NCBI RefSeq assembly: GCF_014396165.1
Contig: NZ_CP060715.1
Coordinates: forward strand, 1,680,001 to 1,712,000
Direction: 5' to 3'
Origin: Erysipelothrix inopinata
GTDB taxonomy: Bacteria > Bacillota_I > Bacilli_A > Erysipelotrichales > Erysipelotrichaceae
Length of the DNA stretch: 32,000 nucleotides
Shown: positions 8,365-27,605 of the stretch, one piece after another
How positions within the stretch are numbered: position 1 is the first letter of the stretch
Layout of the letters: the number at the start of each line of letters is the position of its first letter
Translations under genes and position numbers: made by a program
Notes under the pieces: model-generated
Told to the model about the DNA's origin: nothing
The model's database searches: none
What the model saw: only the letters and a program-made list of their open reading frames with translations

Positions 8365-9292
8365 CGAATAATTTCACAGCCTTTTCTTTATCTTCGTTCA
8401 TTTGCACAATTAATGCATCGATTGAATCGAACTTGATTTGTTCACGAAGGCATGAAACAAATGTTTGGGATATCACTTCTCCATAAATATCTTCGTCAAA
8501 ATCAAGCAAATGAGATTCTACAGATAACTTAACAGAATGATTAAATGTTGGGTTATGACCAATGCTAATAAGTGAGCGGTATGTTTTACCTCGAACTGTT
8601 GCGTACCCTGCATAGACACCTTCTTGAGGTATCACGTATTCATCAGTGATTTCAATATTCGCAGTTGGAAATCCAATTTCACGCCCACGTTGATGGCCTT
8701 TCACAACGAAACCAGATAGATGATACTCACGTCCAAGCATGTCATTCGCTGATTCGATATCTCCTTTAAGTAAGGATTGAACAATAGCTGTAGTTCCAAT
8801 TTTTTTATTAACAGAGTAATCAATTTCCATGATATGTGTATCAAAATAATAACGAGCATGTTCTTGTAAGAACGCAACATTACCAGCACCACGGTATCCG
8901 AATCGGAAATCTTCACCACAAACGAGTACTCGTACATTCAGAGGTACTAAAATGGTTTCTACAAATTCAATGGGTTCAAGTTTGGAGATATCTTTCGTAA
9001 ACTCTATAATTATTAAATGATCAATGCCCATTGATTCAGCAAGTGCAATTTTATCGCGCATTGGCGTTAAATGGTTAACGTGTGATTTATTATTGACGAC
9101 TGTCCACGGATCTGGATCAAATGTAATAATTGCGGATTTGAGTCCACGTTCTTTTGCTACGTCCTTAACTTCATTAATAAGAAGTTGGTGACCCTTGTGA
9201 AGTCCATCAAAATAACCAATACATGCGACAAGTTCATCGCGTTTTTCTACAAGTTGTAAACGATCTTTAATACGTGTTTCTTTCATCACCAT
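8342..9292 (-). CDS. ribF: Bifunctional riboflavin kinase / FMN adenylyltransferase
   Basis: The N-terminal adenylyltransferase motif GYFDGLHKGHQ and the C-terminal riboflavin kinase motifs (GFPTANI, SIGHNPTF, ESHLLDF) are present. It lies directly downstream of truB as in the conserved operon. Confidence 0.9.
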   Translation of the reverse strand: MVMKETRIKDRLQLVEKRDELVACIGYFDGLHKGHQLLINEVKDVAKERGLKSAIITFDPDPWTVVNNKSHVNHLTPMRDKIALAESMGIDHLIIIEFTKDISKLEPIEFVETILVPLNVRVLVCGEDFRFGYRGAGNVAFLQEHARYYFDTHIMEIDYSVNKKIGTTAIVQSLLKGDIESANDMLGREYHLSGFVVKGHQRGREIGFPTANIEITDEYVIPQEGVYAGYATVRGKTYRSLISIGHNPTFNHSVKLSVESHLLDFDEDIYGEVISQTFVSCLREQIKFDSIDALIVQMNEDKEKAVKLFDEIESAI

Positions 9293-10119
9293 AACCCTCT
9301 CACTGACTTAAATGTCTCATCTTTCTCTCGTTGGTAAACAGCATAGTACTCCCCTGCATCAACCAATACCTGATCATGAGGCGTGTTTAATTTAAGCCGT
9401 TTACCGTTTTTTACATAATCTTCCAATTTATCGTTTATGATTTTCGGAAGTGCAATCGAATCTTTGACATTCCATAGCTTTGTATCCGGTTGAATTTCAT
9501 CAATAGAAATAGCATCGTCCAAAGTTAAGTTACCTACCCGAGTACGTTCTAGATAACTCATTGAACCGAGGTTATTTAGCTTCTCAGCGATATCTTCACA
9601 CAGGGTTCGAATATACGTTCCATTTGAGACATGTGCTAAGAATTCTATTGTGTTTTCATCAAATGACAATAACTCTATTTTATAAATTTCAATATCAGTA
9701 TACAACTGTTTTACTTCTTTATTCTCAAATACATAGTCATAGGAACGCTTTCCGTCGACTTTTTTCGCAGATACTTTCGGAACTCTTTGATTTAGAGGAC
9801 CAGTTAGTGATTGAAACACTTCTAAAATTTGTGCTTCAGTGAATGGTTGTACTGGCTTTTCTTCAATAACGTCTCCCCAAATATCTCCAGTCGAAGTTTT
9901 TTGTCCCATCTGACACTTTCCGTGATACACCTTATCTTCAAGACCAAGATAAGGTAAAGCCTTGGTGGCTTGATTCACAGCGATAATAAGTAAGCCTGTT
10001 GCCATTGGATCCAAGGTTCCGGCATGACCCACTTTCGCATTCATGATTCGTCTAACTTTAGCTACAACATCAAATGATGTCATGTCTTGTGGTTTGTTTA
10101 TACATAAAAGTCCCTTCAT
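9286..10119 (-). CDS. truB: tRNA pseudouridine-55 synthase
   Basis: The sequence GLLCINKPQDMTSFDVV...GHAGTLDPMATGLL carries the catalytic Asp of the TruB family. A C-terminal PUA-like region follows. Confidence 0.9.
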   Translation of the reverse strand: MKGLLCINKPQDMTSFDVVAKVRRIMNAKVGHAGTLDPMATGLLIIAVNQATKALPYLGLEDKVYHGKCQMGQKTSTGDIWGDVIEEKPVQPFTEAQILEVFQSLTGPLNQRVPKVSAKKVDGKRSYDYVFENKEVKQLYTDIEIYKIELLSFDENTIEFLAHVSNGTYIRTLCEDIAEKLNNLGSMSYLERTRVGNLTLDDAISIDEIQPDTKLWNVKDSIALPKIINDKLEDYVKNGKRLKLNTPHDQVLVDAGEYYAVYQREKDETFKSVRGLW

Positions 10120-10204: not shown

Positions 10205-10224
10205 GAATACGAAAAGATAAATAT

Positions 10225-10359
10225 TAGAGGTAGCGGTGCAGATGAGTACTTACTGGAGTCGACAGACTGTGAAAGTAAGAAAAGGCAATCACCGCCGAAT
10301 AGATTGTTTTGGTAAAAACAATCTATGGGGTTATGAGGAATACTTATAACACTCCTTTG
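10225..10359 (+). promoter_or_regulatory. Lysine (L-box) riboswitch aptamer, candidate
   Basis: L-box signature blocks occur in the canonical order: AGAGGtaGCG, GATGAGTA, GGAG, GTGAAAG, CGCCGAA. These are followed by a perfect 11-bp hairpin (10300-10325), TGGGG, a hairpin with a GAATA loop (10330-10350) and CACU. The closing P1 strand CCTTTG pairs with TAGAGG. The element sits in the 5' leader of an amino-acid ABC importer. Confidence 0.65.
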
Positions 10360-10390
10360 TTAAGCAAAGCGGCGCTAGAATTCTCCCAAT

Positions 10391-10434: not shown

Positions 10435-12036
10435 ATGAAAAAAATATTAATAGTATTAGCCTCACTTTTACTACTTACAGCCTGTTCTCAAACAAGTCCT
10501 AAAGAGAATACTTTAAAAGTGGGTATGGAGTGTAATTACGCACCTTTTAACTGGACTCAGAAAAATGATTCACCTGAGGCTGTCGCATTACCAAACAACC
10601 AGGGATACTGTGATGGTTATGATGTTCAAGTCGCTAAACATATCGCAAAAGATCTTGATATGAACCTTGTAATCAAAGACTATCCTGTATTTAAAGGATT
10701 GCTCGAAGGGGCAAAAGTTGGTGATATCGACTTAATTATTGCAGGAATGACGAATACAGAAGAACGTCGTCAAGAAGTTGACTTCACAGATATCTATTAC
10801 AAGAGTGATATGGTTCTGGTTGTTAAAAACGACAGTACTTATGCTAATGCAACATCCATTAATGATTTCAAGGGAGCCCATGTTTCAGCTCAAATTGGAA
10901 CAATGCATGATCAGCTAATTGATCAAATCCCTGATGTCAATCATGGAGTTCCACTTGAATCTTTCCCTTCGTTGGCAACAGCTTTAAAATCAAATGCGAT
11001 TGATGCCTTCGTATCGGAAAAACCGGTTGCTCAATCAATTATCAGTAGCAATCCTAAACTCAAATATGTTGAATTCGCAGAAAACCAAGGATTTACTGTC
11101 GCGGATGAAGAAGTAACGGTATCTATTGGTCTTGCAAAAGGCAACGATAAACTTAAAGAAGCAGTGAATCAATCATTATCTTCATTAAGTAAAGAAGATC
11201 GCGATAAACTCATGTTGGAAGCCATTGAACGCCAGCCAACATCAGAAGAAAATGAATCTGCACAAATGCCGGCTGGATTCATTGCAGGAACATTATTTTT
11301 ACTACAACATTACGGTTCACAATTTCTTAAAGGTGTTTGGGTAACGCTTCTTATTGCTTTATTAGGTACAGCATTTGGATTGTTTATTGGTCTTGTAATT
11401 GCAGGCTTACGACAAATTAAAATACATCCTCGAGACCGTGCAATGAAACGTGTCTTAAAACGTATTAATTCAGCAATTACAACTGCCTATGTTCAATACT
11501 TACGGGGAACTCCAATGATGGTACAAGGTATCTTAATCTATTACGGACTTAGAGGTATGGATGTAGCCATATCCCCTACTGTTGCTGCGGTAATCATTAT
11601 TTCAATCAATACTTCCGCGTATATGTCAGAAATACTTCGTGCGGGTATCCAAGCCATTGATTCAGGTCAAAATGAAGCAGCACGATCTTTGGGACTCAGT
11701 GAATTCCAAACGATGTGTTATGTAATCCTTCCACAAGCAATCAGAAATGCCCTACCTGCAATTGGTAATGAATTCGTCGTAAATATTAAAGATTCCTCAG
11801 TATTAAATGTAATCACCGTTACAGAACTATTCTATCAAGGTAATAAACTGACAGGTATCTACTACCGTCAAATGGAGCCATTCTTCATTGTTTCCTTAAT
11901 TTATCTATTCCTTACAATTGTTTCAACACAAGTACTTAATATGATAGAAAAGAAAATGGATGCTCCTAAAGGGAACTATCCAAAATCAGTAACTCACACT
12001 GTACATTATGACAGTTTGAAAGGAGATCAAAAATGA
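10435..12036 (+). CDS. Amino-acid ABC transporter, fused lipoprotein substrate-binding domain + permease domain
   Basis: It has a lipobox signal peptide ([17 protein letters not shown]). A family-3 binding-protein domain follows ([26 protein letters not shown]). The C-terminal polar-amino-acid permease domain carries the EAA loop ([23 protein letters not shown]). It overlaps the ATPase gene. Confidence 0.85.
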
Positions 12037-12773
12037 CATTCCTAAAAATTGAACACTTAAGCAAATCTTTCGATGATTTAGAAGTCTTAAAAGATATTAA
12101 TCTCAATATTGAAGAAGGAGAAGTCGTATCTTGTATCGGATCCAGTGGATCGGGAAAGTCCACCCTTCTTCGTTGCATCAACCTTCTTGAAGAATTTGAC
12201 GAAGGAAAAATTTTCTTTGAAGGAAAAGATATTTCGGATATCAATATGGATATCAATGAATATCGCTCTCAAGTCGGTATCATCTTTCAATCTTTCAATC
12301 TTTTTAATAATCTTACCGTCTTAGAGAACTGCACTCTGGCACCAATCAAAGTCTTGAAAATGAATCCAGATGAAGTTAAGAATAATGCCATGGCCAACCT
12401 TGAACGAGTTGGAATGGCAGACTTTGCAAATGCAAATGTTAAAAAGCTATCAGGCGGTCAAAAACAACGTGTTGCGATTGCGAGAGCACTCACGATGAAA
12501 CCTAAATTCTTATTACTAGATGAACCAACATCGGCATTAGACCCCGAAATGGTGGGCGATGTCTTGGACGTTATCGAAAGTCTTGCTAAAGAAGGCTATA
12601 CGATGTTTGTTGTTACACACGAAATGTTATTTGCAAAACAAATTAGTACTCGAATTCTATTTATGGATAAAGGAATCATTTTGGAAGAAGGAACTCCTGA
12701 TGAAATATTCAACCATCCGAAAGAAGAAAGAACAAAGCAATTCCTTGCACGATTCCACAATCAAAACGACTAA
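12033..12773 (+). CDS. Amino-acid ABC transporter ATP-binding protein (GlnQ/ArtP-like)
   Basis: Walker [11 protein letters not shown]-loop, signature [15 protein letters not shown], Walker [12 protein letters not shown] and H-loop VTHEM are all present. Confidence 0.9.
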
Positions 12774-12876: not shown

Positions 12877-13782
12877 TTATGCTACAGTCGCCTGCATTTG
12901 CTTTTCTCTAATGTTTGACCAATAAGCTTCAATTTTCTTGTTGGTTGGAATTGAATAACTTATAGGTGTCTCTGATCCTAATGCTTCAGTTCGAACCATC
13001 ATTGGTGTTTTGTTTTTAAATCGTTTTTGAAGTCTCTTGTTGTTATAAAAATCAATATACACATCAATTGCTTTCTTTAACTCGCTTTTAGTATTGAATT
13101 CATTAGGATAGTACATTTCTGATTTGATAGTTCCCCAGAATCCTTCCATAGGACCATTATCAATACAGTGTCCCACTCTAGACATACTTTGTATCATTCC
13201 TTGATCTTCTAGCTGTTTTCTAAATACCCTACTTGTATATTGGAATCCTCGGTCACTGTGAAATAAAGGTTTTGCCTCTGGATATCTCGTGATAGCTTTA
13301 TGATAAGTATCAAACACAAGTTGATTATTGTTACGATCACTTATGTGGTACGCCACAATACTCAAATCATAAAGATCAATAATCGCACTGAGATACAGCT
13401 TCTTACCTGAACCTTTAATCTTAAATTCTGTGACATCTGTCAACCATTTTTCATTTGGTTTAGAGGCAAAGAAGTTACGATTTAAAATATTTTCAGCTGT
13501 GATTTCAGGAGTGCTTCGTGAATACTTTTTAGACTTTTGCCGAATCACTGATTTCACACCCAGCTTCTTCATGAGTCTTCGAATTCTCTTTGGATTGTAC
13601 TGAACTCTATTAAACTCATTAATCCAATCTGTCATTCGTCGATAGCCTAAGATATGTCCAAACATTTCATCATAATCAAGAATGAGATTACAAAGCTCAT
13701 GATTCTCAATTTCATTGCTTGTTTCAACACGGTGCGTCCATTTATAATAACTACTTCTTGCGATTTTAAGTACTTTACACAT
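12877..13782 (-). CDS. IS3-family transposase OrfB (DDE integrase core), expressed as an OrfAB fusion
   Basis: The rve-type DDE core is present (WLTDVTEF, HSDRGFQYTS, DNGPMEGFWGTIKSE, YNNKRLQ). The reading frame is open upstream of the first Met back to the slippery site, in the -1 frame relative to orfA. Confidence 0.85.
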   Translation of the reverse strand: MCKVLKIARSSYYKWTHRVETSNEIENHELCNLILDYDEMFGHILGYRRMTDWINEFNRVQYNPKRIRRLMKKLGVKSVIRQKSKKYSRSTPEITAENILNRNFFASKPNEKWLTDVTEFKIKGSGKKLYLSAIIDLYDLSIVAYHISDRNNNQLVFDTYHKAITRYPEAKPLFHSDRGFQYTSRVFRKQLEDQGMIQSMSRVGHCIDNGPMEGFWGTIKSEMYYPNEFNTKSELKKAIDVYIDFYNNKRLQKRFKNKTPMMVRTEALGSETPISYSIPTNKKIEAYWSNIREKQMQATVA

Positions 13783-13835
13783 CCATTGAATACTCCAACC
13801 ATGTTTATGATGAAGTTCTTGGACTGCGAGATACT

Positions 13836-14540
13836 TTACTTCTTGTTTTGCTTTGGAGAATATCGCCGCCCTTCTATTTCCTTCACTTTTTTTAATAGAA
13901 TATTCTCACGTTCTTTCAGTTCAAGTTCTCTTTCGAGTTGTTTGATTTTACGTTCTAAACGTTCTTCATTACTGAGTTGATCTTCTTGTTTTCGTTTGCC
14001 ACGTTTATCAAGAAGCCCTTCATATCCTATCTCGTTATATTTTTGAACCCACTGGTAAACTTGAGCATAGGAAAGCCCGTAGAGTTCGGCTGTTCCCTTA
14101 TAATCGTAGTCATGTTCAATACAATGTGCGACAATTTCTTGACGTTCTTCAATCGTTGTTTTTCTACCTTTTGTCATATAGACTTCTCCTTTAGGATCGT
14201 AATCCTTTATGGTTTCAAGTCTATTATACTTGTTTATCCATCCACGCAAAACCTCATCGGAACTTATATCGTATTTGATAATAATATCTGCGAGAGAACC
14301 TAGTCCTTCAAGGTAATCTTGAATAGCAGATTCCTTAAGTTCTTTCGAATAACTTTTATTTCGAGGTTTATATGAGAATGCTTCAACACCGACGATTTGG
14401 TATTTTTTCACCCATCTACGCAATGTCCCAGGATTAATCGATAATTCTTGGGATATTTCCATTGCACCTTTTATGCCGTTCAAATATTCTTTAACTACTT
14501 GTTCTTTTATTTCCGCTGGATATTTATTCTTTCTACCCAT
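13836..14540 (-). CDS. IS3-family transposase OrfA (two HTH domains plus leucine-zipper-like C-terminus)
   Basis: Two HTH segments are present (ISQELSINPGTLRRWVKKY and TAELYGLSYAQVYQWVQKY). A coiled-coil follows (LERKIKQLERELELKERENILLKK), as is typical of IS3/IS150-group OrfA. Confidence 0.85.
   Translation of the reverse strand: MGRKNKYPAEIKEQVVKEYLNGIKGAMEISQELSINPGTLRRWVKKYQIVGVEAFSYKPRNKSYSKELKESAIQDYLEGLGSLADIIIKYDISSDEVLRGWINKYNRLETIKDYDPKGEVYMTKGRKTTIEERQEIVAHCIEHDYDYKGTAELYGLSYAQVYQWVQKYNEIGYEGLLDKRGKRKQEDQLSNEERLERKIKQLERELELKERENILLKKVKEIEGRRYSPKQNKK
13887..13893 (-). other. Programmed -1 ribosomal frameshift site A AAA AAA (followed by G)
   Basis: The minus-strand sequence TTA AAA AAA GTG is in the orfA zero frame. 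Slipping -1 gives KKSEGNRRAAIFSKAKQEVKYLAVQELHHKHGWSIQWMCKVL, which runs into OrfB without a stop. Confidence 0.7.
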
Positions 14541-21754: not shown

Positions 21755-23818
21755 TTAGAAGTCAATGATGACAGGAATATACATGCAAGTATACGTTACA
21801 TATACAGTCTTAGAATTTTCATCATAAGTAATAATTGGAGTCTCAGCCAAACTTGCTTTGAAATCAACAAATCCACCATATTCGGTTGAGCCATCGCCTA
21901 TGTACCCATTTTGACTTTGAGAGTAAGATCCAAACGATTCTTTTTCGACCCCATTCTCATCTAAATAGAACGTATTCAATTGGACTTCCTTAGGTAAATC
22001 ATTAATATTGAATTCCCAGTTAGATAACGTTACTGATTCCAGTTCTTCTCCGTACTTAACCACTACTGTGCGATTTGTGATGGGTTCATTGAATTTCAAA
22101 TAGTAATTTGAAAAATCAATAACCTCCGCTTGGTAACGTGATAGATCAGGGACTGCTATAAAGTCCTTAGTTGGGTAACCGTTTTGAACATGTTTAAATT
22201 TCACAACAGTTGTCATATATTTAACGGCCTTATCATAAACCACTGTAACTTCTTGATTTGATGCAGTGAATGTTCCTTCAAAGTTCCCTTGAAATTCTTT
22301 GAATTGATAACCATCTATAATTGGCGCTTCAACTTTATAAGAACTCCCTGTCACCCCAGTAAGAGTTACAGGATCTTTGATTTGATTGCCTAGCATATCG
22401 TGATAATTAACTAAAACAGTACCTTCAGTTAGAAGTTTGTTATATGTAATCGTAATGATTTGATCTTCAACTAAGAATGTATTGTTGCCAGGATTAGAAA
22501 TTTCTTTAAATTTATAGCCATCAATTTCGGGGATATCTACTTCGAAACCAGTACCTACTTCCCCAGACAAAACATTATTTGGTTTGAGCGGTGTTCCAGT
22601 TTCATCACGATATTCAATCGTTACCTTACCTATGGAAGAAACAATTTTTCTATATTGAACGATGACTTCTTGTTGCTGTTCAGTAAAGAGTCCTATGTTA
22701 TTGCCGACAAACTTAACAAACTCATACCCGTCAATCATATCAATTGAAACAGTATAAGTACTGCCTATACTACCAGTCATAATTTTAGTAGGTCTGATTG
22801 TATTTCCATCAATGTCTTGGTAATTAACAGTCAAGTTTCCATTCTTTATTACTTTATCATATACAAGAGTTATCACTTGATGTTCTTTAGTGAATAAGGC
22901 ATTACCTAGATTTTCAATATGATTGAATGTGTAGTTTGATATTTTAGGAATATCAACCTTAAATACAGATCCAATGCCACCTGTTAGCTTCATCTCAGGT
23001 TTGATAGCATTTCCTAAGGTATCGTGATAACGAAGTGTAACGAATCCAACTTTCGAATCGTTTTTTCGATAAATTGCAGTTACAGTTTGTTTTTCGATTG
23101 TGAAGCGCCCTTCAGAGTTACCTCTAAATTCTATAAATTGATATCCTTCGAGATCAACCACCTCAATTTTAAACGGTTTATTAACAACTCCTTTAACTTG
23201 AGTTTTGTTTGCGAGTACATTGCCAGTTTCATCTTGATAATGGACTTCAACTATGCCTTCTTTGTCTTCCACAACTTCATCAGGATTATCCTTTGCTGCA
23301 ACTATATATCCTAGATATTTATAACCCTGAATATGTTCTGGTTTTGGAGTAAAGGCTTCACCCTTAGTGACTGTAAGCGTAGTATCTTGAATTAGCGTTG
23401 AAGCATCAGCATAAATGTTCATAGCACCAATTGCGCCTACAGCAATAATGGTTCCAAGAATAACCAATCCAAACAAATTACCTTTTCCTGTTTTTTTGAA
23501 GAGTAACATTAAACCAATTGCGAGAAGTGCGACTCCTATAAATATAAAGGGAGATACAGAATTGAGTCCTGTATTAGGAAGCTCATTACCTCCAGTAATT
23601 TTCGAATAGATCATCCGAATATTGTAAACGTCCTGAGTAACACTAATCTCAGAAGAATCTTTAATTATAGAAGCTTTCTCAGAATCTGATAAATTATCGT
23701 AATTTATATGTGATACTGTTATTTCAGATTTTTTCGTATCACTCAACGCAAATGTTTGAGTGGCACCCATCAGCGACATTACCAAGACCATACACAATAA
23801 TCCAATCTTCTTTCTCAT
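21755..23818 (-). CDS. Secreted MucBP-repeat surface/adhesin-like protein with an internal LPNTG sorting-signal-like segment
   Basis: It has a signal peptide (MRKKIGLLCMVLVMSLMGATQTFA). An LPNTG + hydrophobic stretch + KKTGKG occupies residues 80-113, followed by a second hydrophobic segment. Five MucBP-like modules of about 69 aa follow, then a 153-aa C-terminal region without an anchor motif. Confidence 0.8.
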   Translation of the reverse strand: MRKKIGLLCMVLVMSLMGATQTFALSDTKKSEITVSHINYDNLSDSEKASIIKDSSEISVTQDVYNIRMIYSKITGGNELPNTGLNSVSPFIFIGVALLAIGLMLLFKKTGKGNLFGLVILGTIIAVGAIGAMNIYADASTLIQDTTLTVTKGEAFTPKPEHIQGYKYLGYIVAAKDNPDEVVEDKEGIVEVHYQDETGNVLANKTQVKGVVNKPFKIEVVDLEGYQFIEFRGNSEGRFTIEKQTVTAIYRKNDSKVGFVTLRYHDTLGNAIKPEMKLTGGIGSVFKVDIPKISNYTFNHIENLGNALFTKEHQVITLVYDKVIKNGNLTVNYQDIDGNTIRPTKIMTGSIGSTYTVSIDMIDGYEFVKFVGNNIGLFTEQQQEVIVQYRKIVSSIGKVTIEYRDETGTPLKPNNVLSGEVGTGFEVDIPEIDGYKFKEISNPGNNTFLVEDQIITITYNKLLTEGTVLVNYHDMLGNQIKDPVTLTGVTGSSYKVEAPIIDGYQFKEFQGNFEGTFTASNQEVTVVYDKAVKYMTTVVKFKHVQNGYPTKDFIAVPDLSRYQAEVIDFSNYYLKFNEPITNRTVVVKYGEELESVTLSNWEFNINDLPKEVQLNTFYLDENGVEKESFGSYSQSQNGYIGDGSTEYGGFVDFKASLAETPIITYDENSKTVYVTYTCMYIPVIIDF
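22226..23260 (-). repeat. Five tandem divergent MucBP-like coding repeats (about 207 bp each)
   Basis: The repeated protein pattern is G.V.V.Y.D..GN.I......TG..GS.Y.V....I.GY.F..F.GN..G.F......V.V.Y.K. The modules begin EGIVEVHYQDETGN, VGFVTLRYHDTLGN, NGNLTVNYQDIDGN, IGKVTIEYRDETGT and EGTVLVNYHDMLGN. Confidence 0.8.
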
Positions 23819-23920: not shown

Positions 23921-23957
23921 AAACATAAGAAAGAGATGGTAATGAATACCATCTCTT
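23921..23957 (-). terminator. Intrinsic terminator after the nucleoside hydrolase operon
   Basis: A 10-bp stem AAGAGATGGT / ACCATCTCTT (23931-23940 / 23948-23957) with a 7-nt loop. On the minus strand it is followed by TCTTATGTTT. It begins 3 nt after the stop codon. Confidence 0.75.
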
Positions 23958-23959
23958 CG

Positions 23960-24898
23960 CTATAATATTTTGTTAATAGTTGTAATGACTTCGTTTTTAA
24001 ATCCCTCAACATCTAAATCTAATGCGACTGAAACATTGGGTTTTTTTAGTTCGTTTTGAATGTTTACATCCATTACGGTTCTTCCCCACTGTTTTTCATC
24101 GGTTAACACATCAATCTTAAATTTTGATGTAGAAACAAGATCTGGTCTCAGCAATGCAATTACCGCTAGTGGGTCATGCATTGCTGCTCCATTCCAAGCT
24201 GGATAGATCAGTTCATGGGCTTTGAAGTAGTGATCCATAATTGCATAAACTGTTTGCGCCTTAGCACTGCCCTGTTTCCATGATTCTAAGTCGTTTCTCG
24301 AGAAAATAGCTCGGGATGTCACATCGAGGCCAACCATAATAATCTCCATATCACTTTGAAACACAACTTTTGATGATTCAGGGTCTTGCATGATATTTGC
24401 TTCAGCAACAGCACTTACGTTACCTGGAACACATAGAGCACCACCCATAAGCGATAGTTTGCCGACCCGACTCATTACATCTGGATCCATTTTGATTGCA
24501 TCTGCTAGATTAGTTAATGGTCCTGAAGCAATGATGACAAGTTCTTGACCATACTTACGAGCGGATTCTACAAGAAATGATGCTGCATCGAGCGCTTCAT
24601 ATTGGCGTGTTACATCAAGTGTAACGTTACCAATTCCATTATCTCCATGAAATATTTTACTTCCACGTTGTTGTTCATACGTGCTATTCTGCGAAGCATG
24701 CCCTGCTCCTCGATAAACAGGAACATCTGATCTTCCAAACAAATCAAGAAGTCCTAAAGTATTCCGAGTTGCTTGGTCTACATCCGTGTTACCATAAACA
24801 CACGTTACCCCAATAAGTTCCACATCTTCAAGCGCGGCAAGGTATGCGAGGTTTAAAGTATCATCAATGCCTGTATCAACATCTAAAATAACTTTCAT
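23960..24898 (-). CDS. Inosine-uridine-preferring-type nucleoside hydrolase (IUNH family)
   Basis: The N-terminal aspartate cluster ILDVDTGIDDTLNLAY (DxDxxxDD) is present, along with other family blocks (IASGPLTNLA, AEANIMQDPES, MHDPLAV). Confidence 0.85.
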   Translation of the reverse strand: MKVILDVDTGIDDTLNLAYLAALEDVELIGVTCVYGNTDVDQATRNTLGLLDLFGRSDVPVYRGAGHASQNSTYEQQRGSKIFHGDNGIGNVTLDVTRQYEALDAASFLVESARKYGQELVIIASGPLTNLADAIKMDPDVMSRVGKLSLMGGALCVPGNVSAVAEANIMQDPESSKVVFQSDMEIIMVGLDVTSRAIFSRNDLESWKQGSAKAQTVYAIMDHYFKAHELIYPAWNGAAMHDPLAVIALLRPDLVSTSKFKIDVLTDEKQWGRTVMDVNIQNELKKPNVSVALDLDVEGFKNEVITTINKIL

Positions 24899-24900
24899 AA

Positions 24901-25383
24901 TTATCCTGCAATCATAATTCCAAGTTGCGCTAGAATAGCACGACCGAGATAACTACCTAAGAATACAAAGAGAGCCACAATAATGTATTTCCATGAGTTT
25001 TTTGATAAATCACCGAGGTTATCTGCGACAGAAATTCCTGCGAAAGCAAGAACAGGCGTCGTGATTGAAAGGAAATCGACACCACTGATTGCTTGAATAA
25101 AGAAATCAGAAATGAGGCAGAAAATCAATGATGTCACGGATACCCAACCTAAAACCGGGAAATCAGCCAATACTTTAACACCTGTCTTTTTCATAAGTTC
25201 CGCAATCAGTAATCCAATGTACGCAAATAAGACAAGGACTATCAATCCCATAATAGTATTCATTGTAATCGGTGTTGAAGCTGGGTTTTTAATAAGTTTC
25301 ACAAATTGAGTGAAGAGAATTAATCCTGCTCCTAAAAATAACATTTTTAATTTTGGTAATTGTTCTTTTATAATCGTAATCAT
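24901..25383 (-). CDS. Uncharacterised small polytopic membrane protein (about 5 TM), operon partner of 25392-26186
   Basis: 160 aa and almost entirely hydrophobic helices. The RBS AGGAGG lies 4 nt before the ATG. Only 2 nt separate its stop from the hydrolase ATG. Confidence 0.7.
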   Translation of the reverse strand: MITIIKEQLPKLKMLFLGAGLILFTQFVKLIKNPASTPITMNTIMGLIVLVLFAYIGLLIAELMKKTGVKVLADFPVLGWVSVTSLIFCLISDFFIQAISGVDFLSITTPVLAFAGISVADNLGDLSKNSWKYIIVALFVFLGSYLGRAILAQLGIMIAG

Positions 25384-25391
25384 GGGGCCTC

Positions 25392-26186
25392 CTAGTTAAT
25401 AGCTCTTTCTTTTTTAAATACACGATACATGGCATTCATCAATGGAATTGAAACAAAGACCATTACATAAGTACCCATGAAACTTGTAACTAATTGACTT
25501 GCTCCTGCAAATGAAGTAATCGTACTTGCATGTTCTGGATAAAGACCTACAATCGCACTTGATGAAGCTGTCATCATACTTGCAGAACCCAACCCTGACG
25601 CAATAGCAAGCGCACGATAGTCAAATCCTACTGCACTTAATAGTGGTGGAATAAAGCTAAAGAATAACGATCCAAATAAGGTTCCTACAAGATACATTGA
25701 TAGAACACCACGACCTTCATCGCCATTCAATCCAAATTTTTCAGTAATAAATGCAAGTTCACCTTCACGACCAATACCCAGAGTCGCACCGATTGCTTCA
25801 CGATTTAAGCCTAATAACAGAGCTATTGGTAATCCTAAAATAACGGTACCGATATTTCCAACAGATTGGAGTAAGAATACCCAACCAAGTTGTAAAATTT
25901 CATTGATTTTAGGCGCAACATCCGCACCATAGCGTGCCATAAGTGGCAACATAATAAAGATTAAATTACTTCCTGCAAACTTGATGTTTTCCTTAGAATA
26001 TACTGATTTCAAAGGCCCTTTTCTTAGTGCTGGTATTCCAATAATCATCGTTAGTAGCACAGCAAATACAAGTGGCAATACTAGAATTGTAATACTCCCT
26101 ACTTTGATGAATTGCATACCAATCATTTCTGATATAAAAATAATTCCCATTACATATAGTAAAAATACTATTTTATCTTTTTTCAA
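25392..26186 (-). CDS. Uncharacterised polytopic membrane protein (about 7-8 TM), candidate transporter subunit
   Basis: 264 aa and Gly/Ala/Ser-rich (GLGSASMMTASSSAIVG, GREGELAFITEKFG). Its start overlaps the end of the GNAT gene by 14 nt. In size and pairing it recalls two-subunit carriers, but homology is not verifiable here. Confidence 0.7.
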   Translation of the reverse strand: MKKDKIVFLLYVMGIIFISEMIGMQFIKVGSITILVLPLVFAVLLTMIIGIPALRKGPLKSVYSKENIKFAGSNLIFIMLPLMARYGADVAPKINEILQLGWVFLLQSVGNIGTVILGLPIALLLGLNREAIGATLGIGREGELAFITEKFGLNGDEGRGVLSMYLVGTLFGSLFFSFIPPLLSAVGFDYRALAIASGLGSASMMTASSSAIVGLYPEHASTITSFAGASQLVTSFMGTYVMVFVSIPLMNAMYRVFKKERAIN

Positions 26187-26634
26187 TGTGTTGTCTCTCC
26201 TTAAAGTCTGAATACTTAATCATCTCAACATGTTTAATCCCAAATTTTTGTATGGGATCACTTTCCGCAATAAATCCTTCTGATTTATAAAAGCTTTGTA
26301 AATGCGCTTGTGCACAAATCGTTGCAGTATTAATACCAAGTGTAAATGCCATATCAATTGAATCTTTCACAAGACGTCTTCCCAAAGATTGCTTACGGTA
26401 ACTGTCTTTAACGCAGATTCGCTCTATATAGCCCCTTCCATCTACAATTCGTATTCGTGAACTGGCGGCAACTTCACCATTATTCGAATAAACAAGATGC
26501 ATGCAATCGTCATCTTCCTCGTCTTCAGGATAGAAGTCAATCAAAGATTGTTCTTGAATGAAGACGGAGTTCCTTAGCGCAACAACGTCATCCCAGATAG
26601 GTTGTTGTCGGACATTACCAAAAAATCGTTCCAC
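26173..26634 (-). CDS. GNAT-family N-acetyltransferase
   Basis: 153 aa with the acetyl-CoA-binding motif A (ICVKDSYRKQSLGRRLV) and the C-terminal FYKSEGF. The GTG start lies 4 nt after AAGGAGG. Confidence 0.8.
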   Translation of the reverse strand: MERFFGNVRQQPIWDDVVALRNSVFIQEQSLIDFYPEDEEDDDCMHLVYSNNGEVAASSRIRIVDGRGYIERICVKDSYRKQSLGRRLVKDSIDMAFTLGINTATICAQAHLQSFYKSEGFIAESDPIQKFGIKHVEMIKYSDFKERQHIEKR

Positions 26635-26651
26635 TATTCCTCCTTAAAATT

Positions 26652-26673
26652 AAAAAACTGCCATGTTCGGCAG
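26652..26673 (-). terminator. Expression-platform terminator of the purine riboswitch
   Basis: Minus-strand CTGCC gaacat GGCAG followed by TTTTTT, then AAGGAGG and the start codon. The CTGCC arm can alternatively pair within a 12-bp helix (one bulge) with GGCAAAAGAGAA, which immediately follows and overlaps the aptamer P1 3' strand. Confidence 0.65.
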
Positions 26674-26718
26674 AAAGAGAAAATAGTAAAACGATTTGCA
26701 ATTGCAAATTCTCTTTTG

Positions 26719-26783
26719 CCATAGTTCGTATCTTTACGGGACACAAGTAGAGACTTCCGGACCTTATTACCAGAAATATATGG
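26719..26783 (-). promoter_or_regulatory. Purine riboswitch aptamer, guanine-type (C at the specificity position)
   Basis: The minus strand reads CCAUAUAUUUCUGGUAAUAAGGUCCGGAAGUCUCUACUUGUGUCCCGUAAAGAUACGAACUAUGG. It aligns nearly position for position with the B. subtilis xpt aptamer. P1 is CCAUA/UAUGG, L2 is AAUAAGG, J2-3 is GUCUCUAC, L3 is CCGUAAA and J3-1 is ACU. Confidence 0.8.
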
Positions 26784-26798
26784 AGTTTTTACGAGACA

Positions 26799-26827
26799 AT
26801 AGTATCATTTACAAACGTGAGAGTCAA
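26799..26827 (-). promoter_or_regulatory. Sigma-A promoter of the riboswitch operon
   Basis: On the minus strand, TTGACT (26827-26822), a 17-nt spacer and an extended -10 TGaTACTAT (-10 at 26804-26799). Confidence 0.7.
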
Positions 26828-26919: not shown

Positions 26920-27345
26920 CTAAATTTGATTGTGAATTTCTTTTGACTTACGCCATGCAAGAATAGCGTAACTGCTTGTAGCGATTGCCTCTACAATAAT
27001 TGTATGAGTGTTTGTTATCGTATACAAACCACGAGCTTCATCGGGCATAATTAATGATAAAACAGATCCAGCTACAAAAAATACAGCGATAATAGTCATA
27101 ATAATTTTAGATTTATGAACAACTTGATCATCCAAGCCGTCTCGAATCATCATATAACTTACAACAAAGAAGAGACAGGCGTATATCATTGCGAAGTCAA
27201 AACGTGTTAGAGACTCAATTGTTAATCCAAAAATGTCGACACAGAAATCTTTCACTACAATCATGACGATTAGCATCAAGAAACCGTATAATACCCCTTT
27301 ACCTCTAATAGCCAGCATTCTTTCATCCATTTCACTTGTAAACAT
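26920..27345 (-). CDS. Small 4-TM membrane protein co-transcribed with an XRE regulator
   Basis: The ATG at 27345 lies 5 nt after GAGAGGAGAA and 1 nt after the XRE stop. The N-terminal MDERML motif followed by four hydrophobic helices is typical of the widespread small membrane proteins paired with short HTH regulators. Confidence 0.7.
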   Translation of the reverse strand: MFTSEMDERMLAIRGKGVLYGFLMLIVMIVVKDFCVDIFGLTIESLTRFDFAMIYACLFFVVSYMMIRDGLDDQVVHKSKIIMTIIAVFFVAGSVLSLIMPDEARGLYTITNTHTIIVEAIATSSYAILAWRKSKEIHNQI

Positions 27346-27346
27346 A

Positions 27347-27532
27347 CTAATTCTCCTCTCTCCAGAATAAATCATTTAAAGTAACCTCCAACGCCTTACA
27401 TATCTTAATACATAGATCCAAAGTTGGATTGTAATCTCCGTTTTCAACACTGACTATCGTTTGTCGTGATACTCCAACAATTTTCGCCAGTTCTAATTGC
27501 GAGTACTTCTTAGATAGTCGCAACGTTTTCAT
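27347..27532 (-). CDS. XRE-family (Cro/CI-type) helix-turn-helix transcriptional regulator
   Basis: The sequence MKTLRLSKKYSQLELAKIVGVSRQTIVSVENGDYNPTLDLCIKICKALEVTLNDLF is a classic HTH_3 pattern. The start is uncertain. The ATG at 27532 lacks a good SD, whereas an in-frame ATT at 27547 lies 8 nt after GGAGG. The ORF-track start at 27601 would overlap the predicted promoter and is rejected. Confidence 0.8.
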   Translation of the reverse strand: MKTLRLSKKYSQLELAKIVGVSRQTIVSVENGDYNPTLDLCIKICKALEVTLNDLFWREEN

Positions 27533-27557
27533 GGTTTCATTTTTAATGACGACCACC

Positions 27558-27605
27558 TCCAATGTCAAATATAGTATACACCGGGTTATTTCCGATGTCA
27601 AATAT
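27558..27605 (-). repeat. Two 15-nt direct repeats ATATTTGACAT(C/T)GGA, candidate operator sites
   Basis: The copies lie at 27591-27605 (overlapping the -35) and 27558-27572 (around the start site, overlapping GGAGG). They are spaced 33 nt start to start and match at 14 of 15 positions. Confidence 0.5.
27573..27601 (-). promoter_or_regulatory. Sigma-A promoter of the XRE/membrane-protein operon
   Basis: On the minus strand, TTGACA (27601-27596), a 17-nt spacer and TATACT (27578-27573). Confidence 0.7.

Follow-up and report, generated by a model that had tools for sequence, protein, structure and literature searches.

Organisation of the operon

A 32,000-nucleotide stretch of the Erysipelothrix inopinata genome (assembly GCF_014396165.1, contig NZ_CP060715.1, positions 1,680,001-1,712,000), hereafter the window, carries on its minus strand a four-gene operon in which a GNAT acetyltransferase, two membrane proteins and an IUNH nucleoside hydrolase are placed behind a guanine-class riboswitch. 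The larger membrane protein belongs to the Pfam family DUF3100 and the smaller is its constant partner. The comparisons presented here suggest that the two form a single carrier, which in this lineage may import purine nucleosides for hydrolysis. The elements of the operon, in window numbering, are as follows.

26827..26799, minus strand: predicted sigma-70-like promoter, TTGACT, 17-nucleotide spacer, extended -10 TGnTACTAT (consensus scan)
26803..26702, minus strand: purine riboswitch aptamer, guanine class (RF00167)
26701..26648, minus strand: expression platform (minimum-free-energy fold and terminator scan)
26673..26658, minus strand: leader terminator, CUGCC-GAACAU-GGCAG followed by U6, TTTTTT in the DNA (terminator scan)
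26634..26173, minus strand: GNAT acetyltransferase, 153 amino acids; GTG start, with AAGGAGG 5' of the start
26186..25392, minus strand: DUF3100 large membrane subunit, 264 amino acids; TTG start, with its own AAGGAG
25383..24901, minus strand: small membrane subunit, 160 amino acids; AGGAGG within the preceding gap
24898..23960, minus strand: IUNH nucleoside hydrolase, 312 amino acids (PF01156)
23958..23930, minus strand: intrinsic terminator at the end of the operon, 12-bp stem and T-rich tail (terminator scan)

The promoter-like site sits immediately 5' of the aptamer, and the gene 5' of the operon ends at a terminator of its own (26912-26895, terminator scan). From the order of the elements and this separate upstream terminator, the four genes constitute a single riboswitch-controlled transcription unit. 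The GNAT and DUF3100 genes overlap by 14 nucleotides, the DUF3100 and small-subunit genes are separated by 8 nucleotides, and the small-subunit and IUNH genes by 2 nucleotides. The arrangement is not due to chance, since the gene order recurs in related genomes. A previous interpretation of the window (the sequence-only reading) had described these same tight junctions, together with one riboswitch-controlled promoter and one terminator; every element of the coupling was found where it had been placed, and the promoter-like site, the RF00167 aptamer and the terminator at 23958..23930 were all located.

The guanine riboswitch

RF00167 was matched over model positions 1-102 of 102 with 69.8 bits, against a gathering threshold of 37 (E 1.4e-12, cmscan), and the three-stem junction of the family is present in the window aptamer. 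As read off the cmscan alignment, the pocket nucleotides U22, U47, U51 and C74 are retained. The joining region J2/3 is GUCUCUAC and J3/1 is AC-U, and the core departs from the consensus in A24U and in the flipped-out U48C, with no other differences. On these residues the riboswitch is assigned to the canonical C74 guanine type. In the minimum-free-energy fold, an antiterminator is formed by GGCAAAAGAG, which overlaps the 3' strand of the P1 stem, pairing with CUCUUUCUGCC, which is the 5' half of the leader terminator (z = -2.6). A P1 stem stabilised by ligand would free the terminator, giving the usual guanine OFF logic, and the alternative terminator and antiterminator folds predict a ligand-OFF switch.

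Guanine-I riboswitches govern purine uptake and salvage units in Bacillota, and nucleobase permeases are common targets of guanine riboswitches (PMC9295807). The variant riboswitches that bind 2'-deoxyguanosine (2'-dG-III) are specifically tied to nucleoside hydrolase genes; all three of their joining regions depart from the guanine consensus, and they are predicted to act as ON switches (PMC9295807). A 2'-dG-III identity was considered for the window aptamer and ruled out, as its joining regions fit the guanine consensus and its platform is predicted to be of the OFF type.

The two membrane proteins

The 264-residue protein matches DUF3100 (PF11299) at 5.5e-84 (281.7 bits; gathering threshold 27) over model positions 2-234 of 235. 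It is 100% identical to a database protein of the same length (P0121), and DUF3100 homologues occur across the Bacillota at 58-84% identity. The 160-residue protein is 100% identical to H9L01_08280 and has no match to any Pfam or NCBIfam family at E≤10. At the same threshold, no Pfam family besides DUF3100 was matched by either membrane protein, and neither matched the Pfam families of nucleoside and nucleobase carriers (CNT, NupG/MFS, NCS2, AzgA, Bmp-ABC). The sequence-only reading had found no signatures of known carriers in the pair, which holds for these carrier families, but the larger protein does have a family in DUF3100. Its further description of the pair as functionally undescribed agrees with the literature searched, in which DUF3100 and PF11299 are not mentioned; nor did that literature contain a paper joining a guanine riboswitch, a nucleoside hydrolase and a transporter. 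Comparisons with Pfam, PDB profiles and Foldseek likewise gave no significant link to any characterised transporter.

This pair of proteins behaves as a single unit. In 80 genome loci recovered with the DUF3100 profile, with neighbours identified by tblastn and clustering of open reading frames, the small gene lies directly 3' of the DUF3100 gene on the same strand in every case (80/80). In three Brachybacterium genomes the two are fused in frame, with about 45 linker residues between them. A small-subunit profile searched against 1.84 billion representatives gave 246 relatives. Among the best 150 of the 246, which were inspected for fusions, all nine proteins of 429-488 amino acids consist of DUF3100 followed by the small domain. 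The mutual identity of these nine is only about 30%, so that fusion is widespread. The small protein is thus an obligate DUF3100 partner.

Hydropathy and AlphaFold secondary structure assign to DUF3100 about six to seven long helices, along with others that are short or broken, and to the small protein about five helices, roughly matching the seven to eight and five transmembrane segments of the sequence-only reading. P0241, a naturally fused protein with 56% identity to the pair of the window, was modelled with AlphaFold2. The model has a predicted local distance difference test score (pLDDT) of 88.6 and a predicted template-modelling score (pTM) of 0.89, and shows a single compact bundle that is all-helical and lacks a soluble domain. 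DUF3100 modelled by itself reached a pLDDT of only 73. In the fusion model, the short or broken helices of DUF3100 fall at the invariant motifs PLMARYGADVAP, GxGREGE and GSASMM, and those of the small domain at the invariant TTPxLAFAGxSVA. The top Foldseek matches are all secondary carriers, with CitS (probability 0.82) followed by SOS1, GltPh/EAAT and NapA, at E≥0.008 and template-modelling scores ≤0.27. With the same model, no significant Foldseek superposition was obtained on elevator-type (CitS/2HCT, GltPh) or NhaA-fold carriers.

A motif P-x-L/M-A-x-x-G-x-x-V-A is common to the N-terminal half of DUF3100 and the small subunit. Searches for internal repeats or homology between the subunits, by hhalign of three segments, gave E-values of 0.1-0.35, which are not significant. 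Parallel invariant motifs were also observed at DUF3100 residues 76-104 (LPLMARYGADVAPxxxExxxxGW) and small-subunit residues 105-133 (TTPVLAFAGISVADxLxDLxxxSW). These could mark pseudo-symmetric broken helices in the two subunits, with hhalign E-values of 0.1-0.19 that are not significant.

The nucleoside hydrolase and the acetyltransferase

The hydrolase matches PF01156 at 2e-84 (284.2 bits, above gathering). Its N-terminal DVDTGIDD, at residues 6-13, satisfies the DXDXXXDD calcium/ribose-binding motif, and the HD motif is present (AAMHDPLA). The best NCBIfam model is RihC (NF008036), at 206.6 bits against an equivalog cut-off of 382, and the best PDB match is 6BA1, a RihC-type enzyme of Gardnerella vaginalis (5.6e-74). 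By these comparisons, the enzyme appears closest to the non-specific RihC-type hydrolases, falling below the level of a RihC equivalog. The acetyltransferase matches PF13673 (51.4 bits) and PF00583 (48.6 bits) above gathering, and also PF13508. Its best PDB match is SACOL1063 (2.2e-18), with ElaA at 9.4e-09. The ElaA equivalog model NF007644 is reached at 42.9 bits against a cut-off of 171, and the protein is classed on similarity as ElaA/SACOL1063-like, not as an ElaA equivalog.

Genomic context of the DUF3100 family

An M20-family amidohydrolase gene, encoding about 420 amino acids, is found directly 5' of the pair in 69 of the 80 genome loci. An IUNH gene accompanies the pair in nine, the contig end cuts off the neighbour in two, and no locus has both M20 and IUNH. 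Among 65 metagenome loci, 45 have M20 with the pair and one has IUNH, the rest being too short to tell. Two fused relatives, at about 30% identity, also adjoin M20 genes, and one of these two loci has a GNAT gene. The product of the M20 gene resembles TIGR01891, with more distant similarity to ILR1, Xaa-Arg dipeptidase, HmrA and AbgA; for the M20-linked cassettes the survey covered the adjacent M20 gene only. No relevant riboswitch was found upstream of 10 diverse M20-linked loci. Given the M20 gene beside the pair in most genome and metagenome loci, and the lack of a riboswitch at the examined M20 cassettes, the family is tied, in its ancestral and most common role, to an amidohydrolase and not to purines.

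Two observations on individual M20-linked loci may be added. At Brachybacterium loci L052 (6074-8344), L056 (4634-8341) and L062, the upstream M20 frame runs into the fusion frame without a stop, a continuity seen in high-GC genomes and from open reading frame calls only. In a metagenome contig (ERZ28669879, locus L086, 3004-6290), the order is M20, a GNAT of the Acetyltransf_3 type and a fused DUF3100-small carrier at about 30% identity, so that an acetyltransferase partner occurs outside the nucleoside-linked clade too.

The IUNH-linked DUF3100 proteins, including that of the window, are monophyletic in a neighbour-joining tree. They come from Erysipelothrix, Clostridium paraputrificum, Olsenella uli and a Eubacterium, and have IUNH in place of M20. 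The hydrolase gene is present with the pair in every clade locus, through six architectures in at least four genera, from Bacillota and an actinobacterium.

E. inopinata: riboswitch, GNAT, DUF3100, small subunit, IUNH
E. anatis / E. aquatica: riboswitch, adenine deaminase, GNAT, DUF3100, small subunit, IUNH
Logan contig: IUNH, divergent from riboswitch, adenine deaminase, GNAT, DUF3100, small subunit
Uncultured Eubacterium: ribokinase, DUF3100, small subunit, IUNH, adenine deaminase
Olsenella uli: ribokinase, adenine deaminase, DUF3100, small subunit, IUNH, GNAT
C. paraputrificum group: LacI, ribokinase, GNAT, DUF3100, small subunit, IUNH

GNAT is thus present in five of the six architectures and ribokinase in three. 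The adenine deaminase and ribokinase score above the equivalog cut-offs of TIGR01178 and TIGR02152, respectively, and no amidase or deacylase was found among the genes of the clade loci. Guanine-type (C74) aptamers also lie 5' of the module, in a different gene order, in E. anatis, E. aquatica and the one Logan contig. Riboswitch scans upstream of the loci recovered guanine riboswitches at all Erysipelothrix-type loci and at no others. The co-occurrence of the pair with IUNH genes and purine riboswitches, which the sequence-only reading had regarded as a test of its proposal, is therefore found within the window's clade but not for the DUF3100 family at large. About 12 positions discriminate the IUNH-linked from the M20-linked carriers. 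In the clade, DUF3100 has S108 where a family-wide glutamate (E108) stands in the LLQELGN motif, and the small subunit has R148 for serine and V51 for tryptophan; these substitutions are consistent with a change of substrate. In an Olsenella uli-type contig (L081), a PTPS/QueD-family gene lies just 3' of the nucleoside module (8988-9416), for which a link to 7-deazapurine metabolism is possible.

Proposed function and alternatives

From the gene structure, the riboswitch class, the family assignments, the strict pairing and fusion, and the clade-specific co-occurrence of purine and ribose genes, all of which are shown by the data, we infer a transport step, its direction and its substrate; the OFF logic of the switch is likewise inferred. 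The operon is read, with slightly better than even confidence, as a system for the import of purine nucleosides and their subsequent hydrolysis. It is considered likely that DUF3100 and the small protein are one heteromeric secondary importer, on the grounds of a constant cytoplasmic hydrolase that needs an imported conjugate, an IUNH module that otherwise has no uptake step, and the carrier-like fold of the model. A purine ribonucleoside substrate in the clade is suggested by IUNH, adenine deaminase and ribokinase together with repression by guanine.

According to this proposal, a shortage of guanine (or hypoxanthine) would let the leader antiterminator form and all four genes be transcribed, whilst guanine would shut off the nucleoside-scavenging operon. 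DUF3100 and the 160-residue protein would together make up one secondary carrier with some 12-13 helices, which in other lineages is a single fused polypeptide. The carrier would take up ribonucleosides, most likely adenosine, inosine or guanosine, and the RihC-like IUNH would split these into base and ribose, with the base entering salvage. In sister genomes, adenine deaminase may in addition convert adenine to hypoxanthine, and ribokinase may convert ribose to ribose-5-phosphate. The ElaA-like GNAT would be a conserved accessory. The sequence-only reading had likewise proposed import of guanosine or inosine, for which the IUNH, the purine and ribose genes and the riboswitch speak within the clade, and against which stands the M20 linkage of the family at large.

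Several observations weigh against nucleoside import. About 90% of the relatives adjoin an M20 gene and not a purine gene, the clade carriers are 60-67% identical to M20-linked relatives whose substrate is presumably very different, which is unusually close for such a shift, and the riboswitch link is confined to one genus-level lineage. Adenine deaminase and ribokinase are missing from the window's own operon, and simple nucleoside salvage leaves the GNAT unexplained. Histidine-containing group I IUNH enzymes, the type found in the window, can also act on pyrimidine nucleosides. No PDB sequence relative of the pair was found with three family profiles, and Foldseek searches of the PDB gave no match at E≤0.001 with either the DUF3100-only or the fusion model.

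An alternative to plain purine nucleosides as the imported substrate is a nucleoside that is modified or conjugated (amino-bearing, N-acylated or linked to an amino acid), which IUNH and GNAT would process or detoxify. Such a substrate would be in chemical continuity with M20-linked relatives that act on amide or acyl-amino-acid conjugates, and would suit the close identity and few discriminating positions of the two groups of carriers, the recurrence of GNAT in most clade architectures and its occurrence at one distant M20-linked fusion locus. However, the riboswitch is of the standard guanine class, adenine deaminase and ribokinase belong to ordinary adenosine catabolism, and the clade loci are without an amidase or deacylase, so that this alternative is judged unlikely. 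Somewhat more doubtful is that the pair moves a product or a neighbouring metabolite, by uptake of a purine base or of ribose or by export of the base. Guanine riboswitches often control nucleobase permeases (PMC9295807), and ribokinase is found in half of the architectures. Yet the hydrolase neighbour that is seen family-wide, whether M20 or IUNH, needs a conjugate and is often translationally coupled, which fits substrate delivery. Moreover, ribokinase and adenine deaminase are each missing in some architectures and IUNH in none.

It is improbable that the pair is not a transporter at all and instead works in the membrane as an enzyme or sensor, or anchors the hydrolase. The lack of significant similarity to any solved transporter would allow this, and the many invariant charged residues (GREGE, RYGADVAP) could in principle be catalytic. 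Against it stand the compact polytopic bundle of the fusion model, which has no soluble domain, its weak structural neighbours, all of them carriers, and the content of the IUNH-linked module, which has cytoplasmic catabolic enzymes only and would otherwise have no uptake step. That the IUNH adjacency is incidental, with the pair carrying the same non-nucleoside substrate as the M20-linked relatives to which it is so similar, is disfavoured as very improbable, given the mutual exclusion of M20 and IUNH, the monophyly of the clade, the persistence of the IUNH linkage through six rearranged architectures in Bacillota and an actinobacterium, and the guanine riboswitch control of the module in Erysipelothrix-type loci.

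If the pair does import nucleosides, an unrelated family would join the short list of bacterial nucleoside carriers, a function would be provided for Pfam DUF3100 and for its family-less partner, and purine acquisition would become clearer in Erysipelothrix and some gut Clostridia. A broader proposal is put forward tentatively, as one that falls a little short of an even chance. DUF3100 and its partner may be an unrecognised family of secondary transporters, two-component or fused and possibly of a new fold, whose members serve, interchangeably, as the uptake modules of cytoplasmic hydrolases. The Erysipelothrix/C. paraputrificum/Olsenella clade would then have been re-specialised recently, from an amide conjugate to purine ribonucleosides, by about a dozen substitutions (e.g. 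E108S in the large and S148R in the small subunit), and would add a sixth type, unrelated to the others, to the nucleoside importers of bacteria. Carriers of 60-67% identity that are paired with M20 or IUNH, and separated by few discriminating residues, offer a natural experiment in substrate switching. The DUF3100 family also merits consideration for structure determination, given a confident AlphaFold model without a significant PDB neighbour.

Other features of the window

Directly 5' of the riboswitch operon (26920-27601, minus strand), a gene for an XRE-type helix-turn-helix regulator of 84 amino acids overlaps that of a 151-residue multi-pass membrane protein. The latter has weak DUF7641/TMEM164-like matches only, and the gene pair ends at the terminator at 26912-26895. 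At 21755-23818 (minus strand), a 687-residue MucBP-repeat protein has a signal peptide, then about 50 residues, and then a complete sortase-type sorting signal at residues ~80-115 (LPNTG, a hydrophobic stretch and KKTGKG). After this signal come another hydrophobic helix and five repeats of the MucBP type, and the protein is without a C-terminal anchor; the layout may be a two-gene fusion or an unusual topology. A lysine riboswitch (RF00168, 82.4 bits, 10217-10385, plus strand) lies directly 5' of an ABC amino-acid transporter (10435-12773, plus strand), in which an SBP_bac_3 solute-binding domain is fused to the permease (533 amino acids) and is followed by an ATPase gene. Between this transporter and infB-nusA-rimP lies an IS3-type element, with a helix-turn-helix transposase and an rve integrase reading frame (12877-14540, minus strand).

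Comparison with known systems

The lysine exporter LysO/YbjE (DUF340, PF03956) bears a resemblance to DUF3100, whose ALAMASGxGSaSMM is similar to the LysO ALAMASGFGWYSLSG. Alignment of DUF3100 with Escherichia coli LysO by hhalign scored 26.9 at E 0.008, with 20 shuffles scoring ≤18.2; the probability is only 4.8%, over 35 columns. The LysO homologues found were all at least 86% identical, and the LysO profile is therefore not sensitive. The small subunit aligned with LysO no better than shuffles did. Some UniRef entries call small-subunit homologues 'DUF340 domain-containing'; in Pfam scans, PF03956 was matched by no member tested, including these. The motif resemblance is taken as a lead, not as homology.

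In layout, the pair is comparable to the two-subunit secondary carriers MadL/MadM, TRAP DctQ/DctM and TTT TctB/TctA, which are also known as fusions. In each case a large and a small membrane subunit are encoded side by side and are fused in some lineages. Unlike in these systems, the order in the window is large then small, and no conserved solute-binding protein lies beside the pair. Membership of MadL/MadM was rejected, as no MadL or MadM Pfam match was obtained at E≤10, and the comparison with MadL/MadM drawn in the sequence-only reading is retained as an analogy of layout only. A second parallel is provided by AbgT, a secondary carrier encoded beside the AbgA/AbgB M20 hydrolases that cleave the imported conjugate. 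By analogy, the wider DUF3100 family has a candidate carrier beside an M20 amidohydrolase gene, and the M20 neighbour shows weak similarity to a PDB entry that bears the name aminobenzoyl-glutamate utilization protein, as well as to ILR1 and HmrA. Neither DUF3100 nor the small protein, however, showed any relation to AbgT in sequence (Pfam, E≤10), and the window's clade has IUNH instead of M20.

Among riboswitch-controlled units, the window operon shares with the 2'-dG-III units an aptamer of the purine-riboswitch fold 5' of a nucleoside hydrolase gene (PMC9295807). It differs from them in that its aptamer retains the guanine-I core, is predicted to be an OFF switch and also controls the membrane pair and GNAT. 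With the guanine-I units of Bacillota it shares a three-stem C74 aptamer followed by an intrinsic terminator through which abundant guanine reduces the expression of genes for uptake and salvage (PMC9295807). Unlike in those units, its membrane part is DUF3100 with an unnamed partner, and not NCS2, AzgA, NupG/MFS, CNT or a Bmp-type ABC system, and a hydrolase and a GNAT gene are coupled into the same operon. A riboswitch-repressed operon for purine salvage and uptake is thus of a known kind, and the new part is an uncharacterised, possibly structurally novel, two-component carrier.

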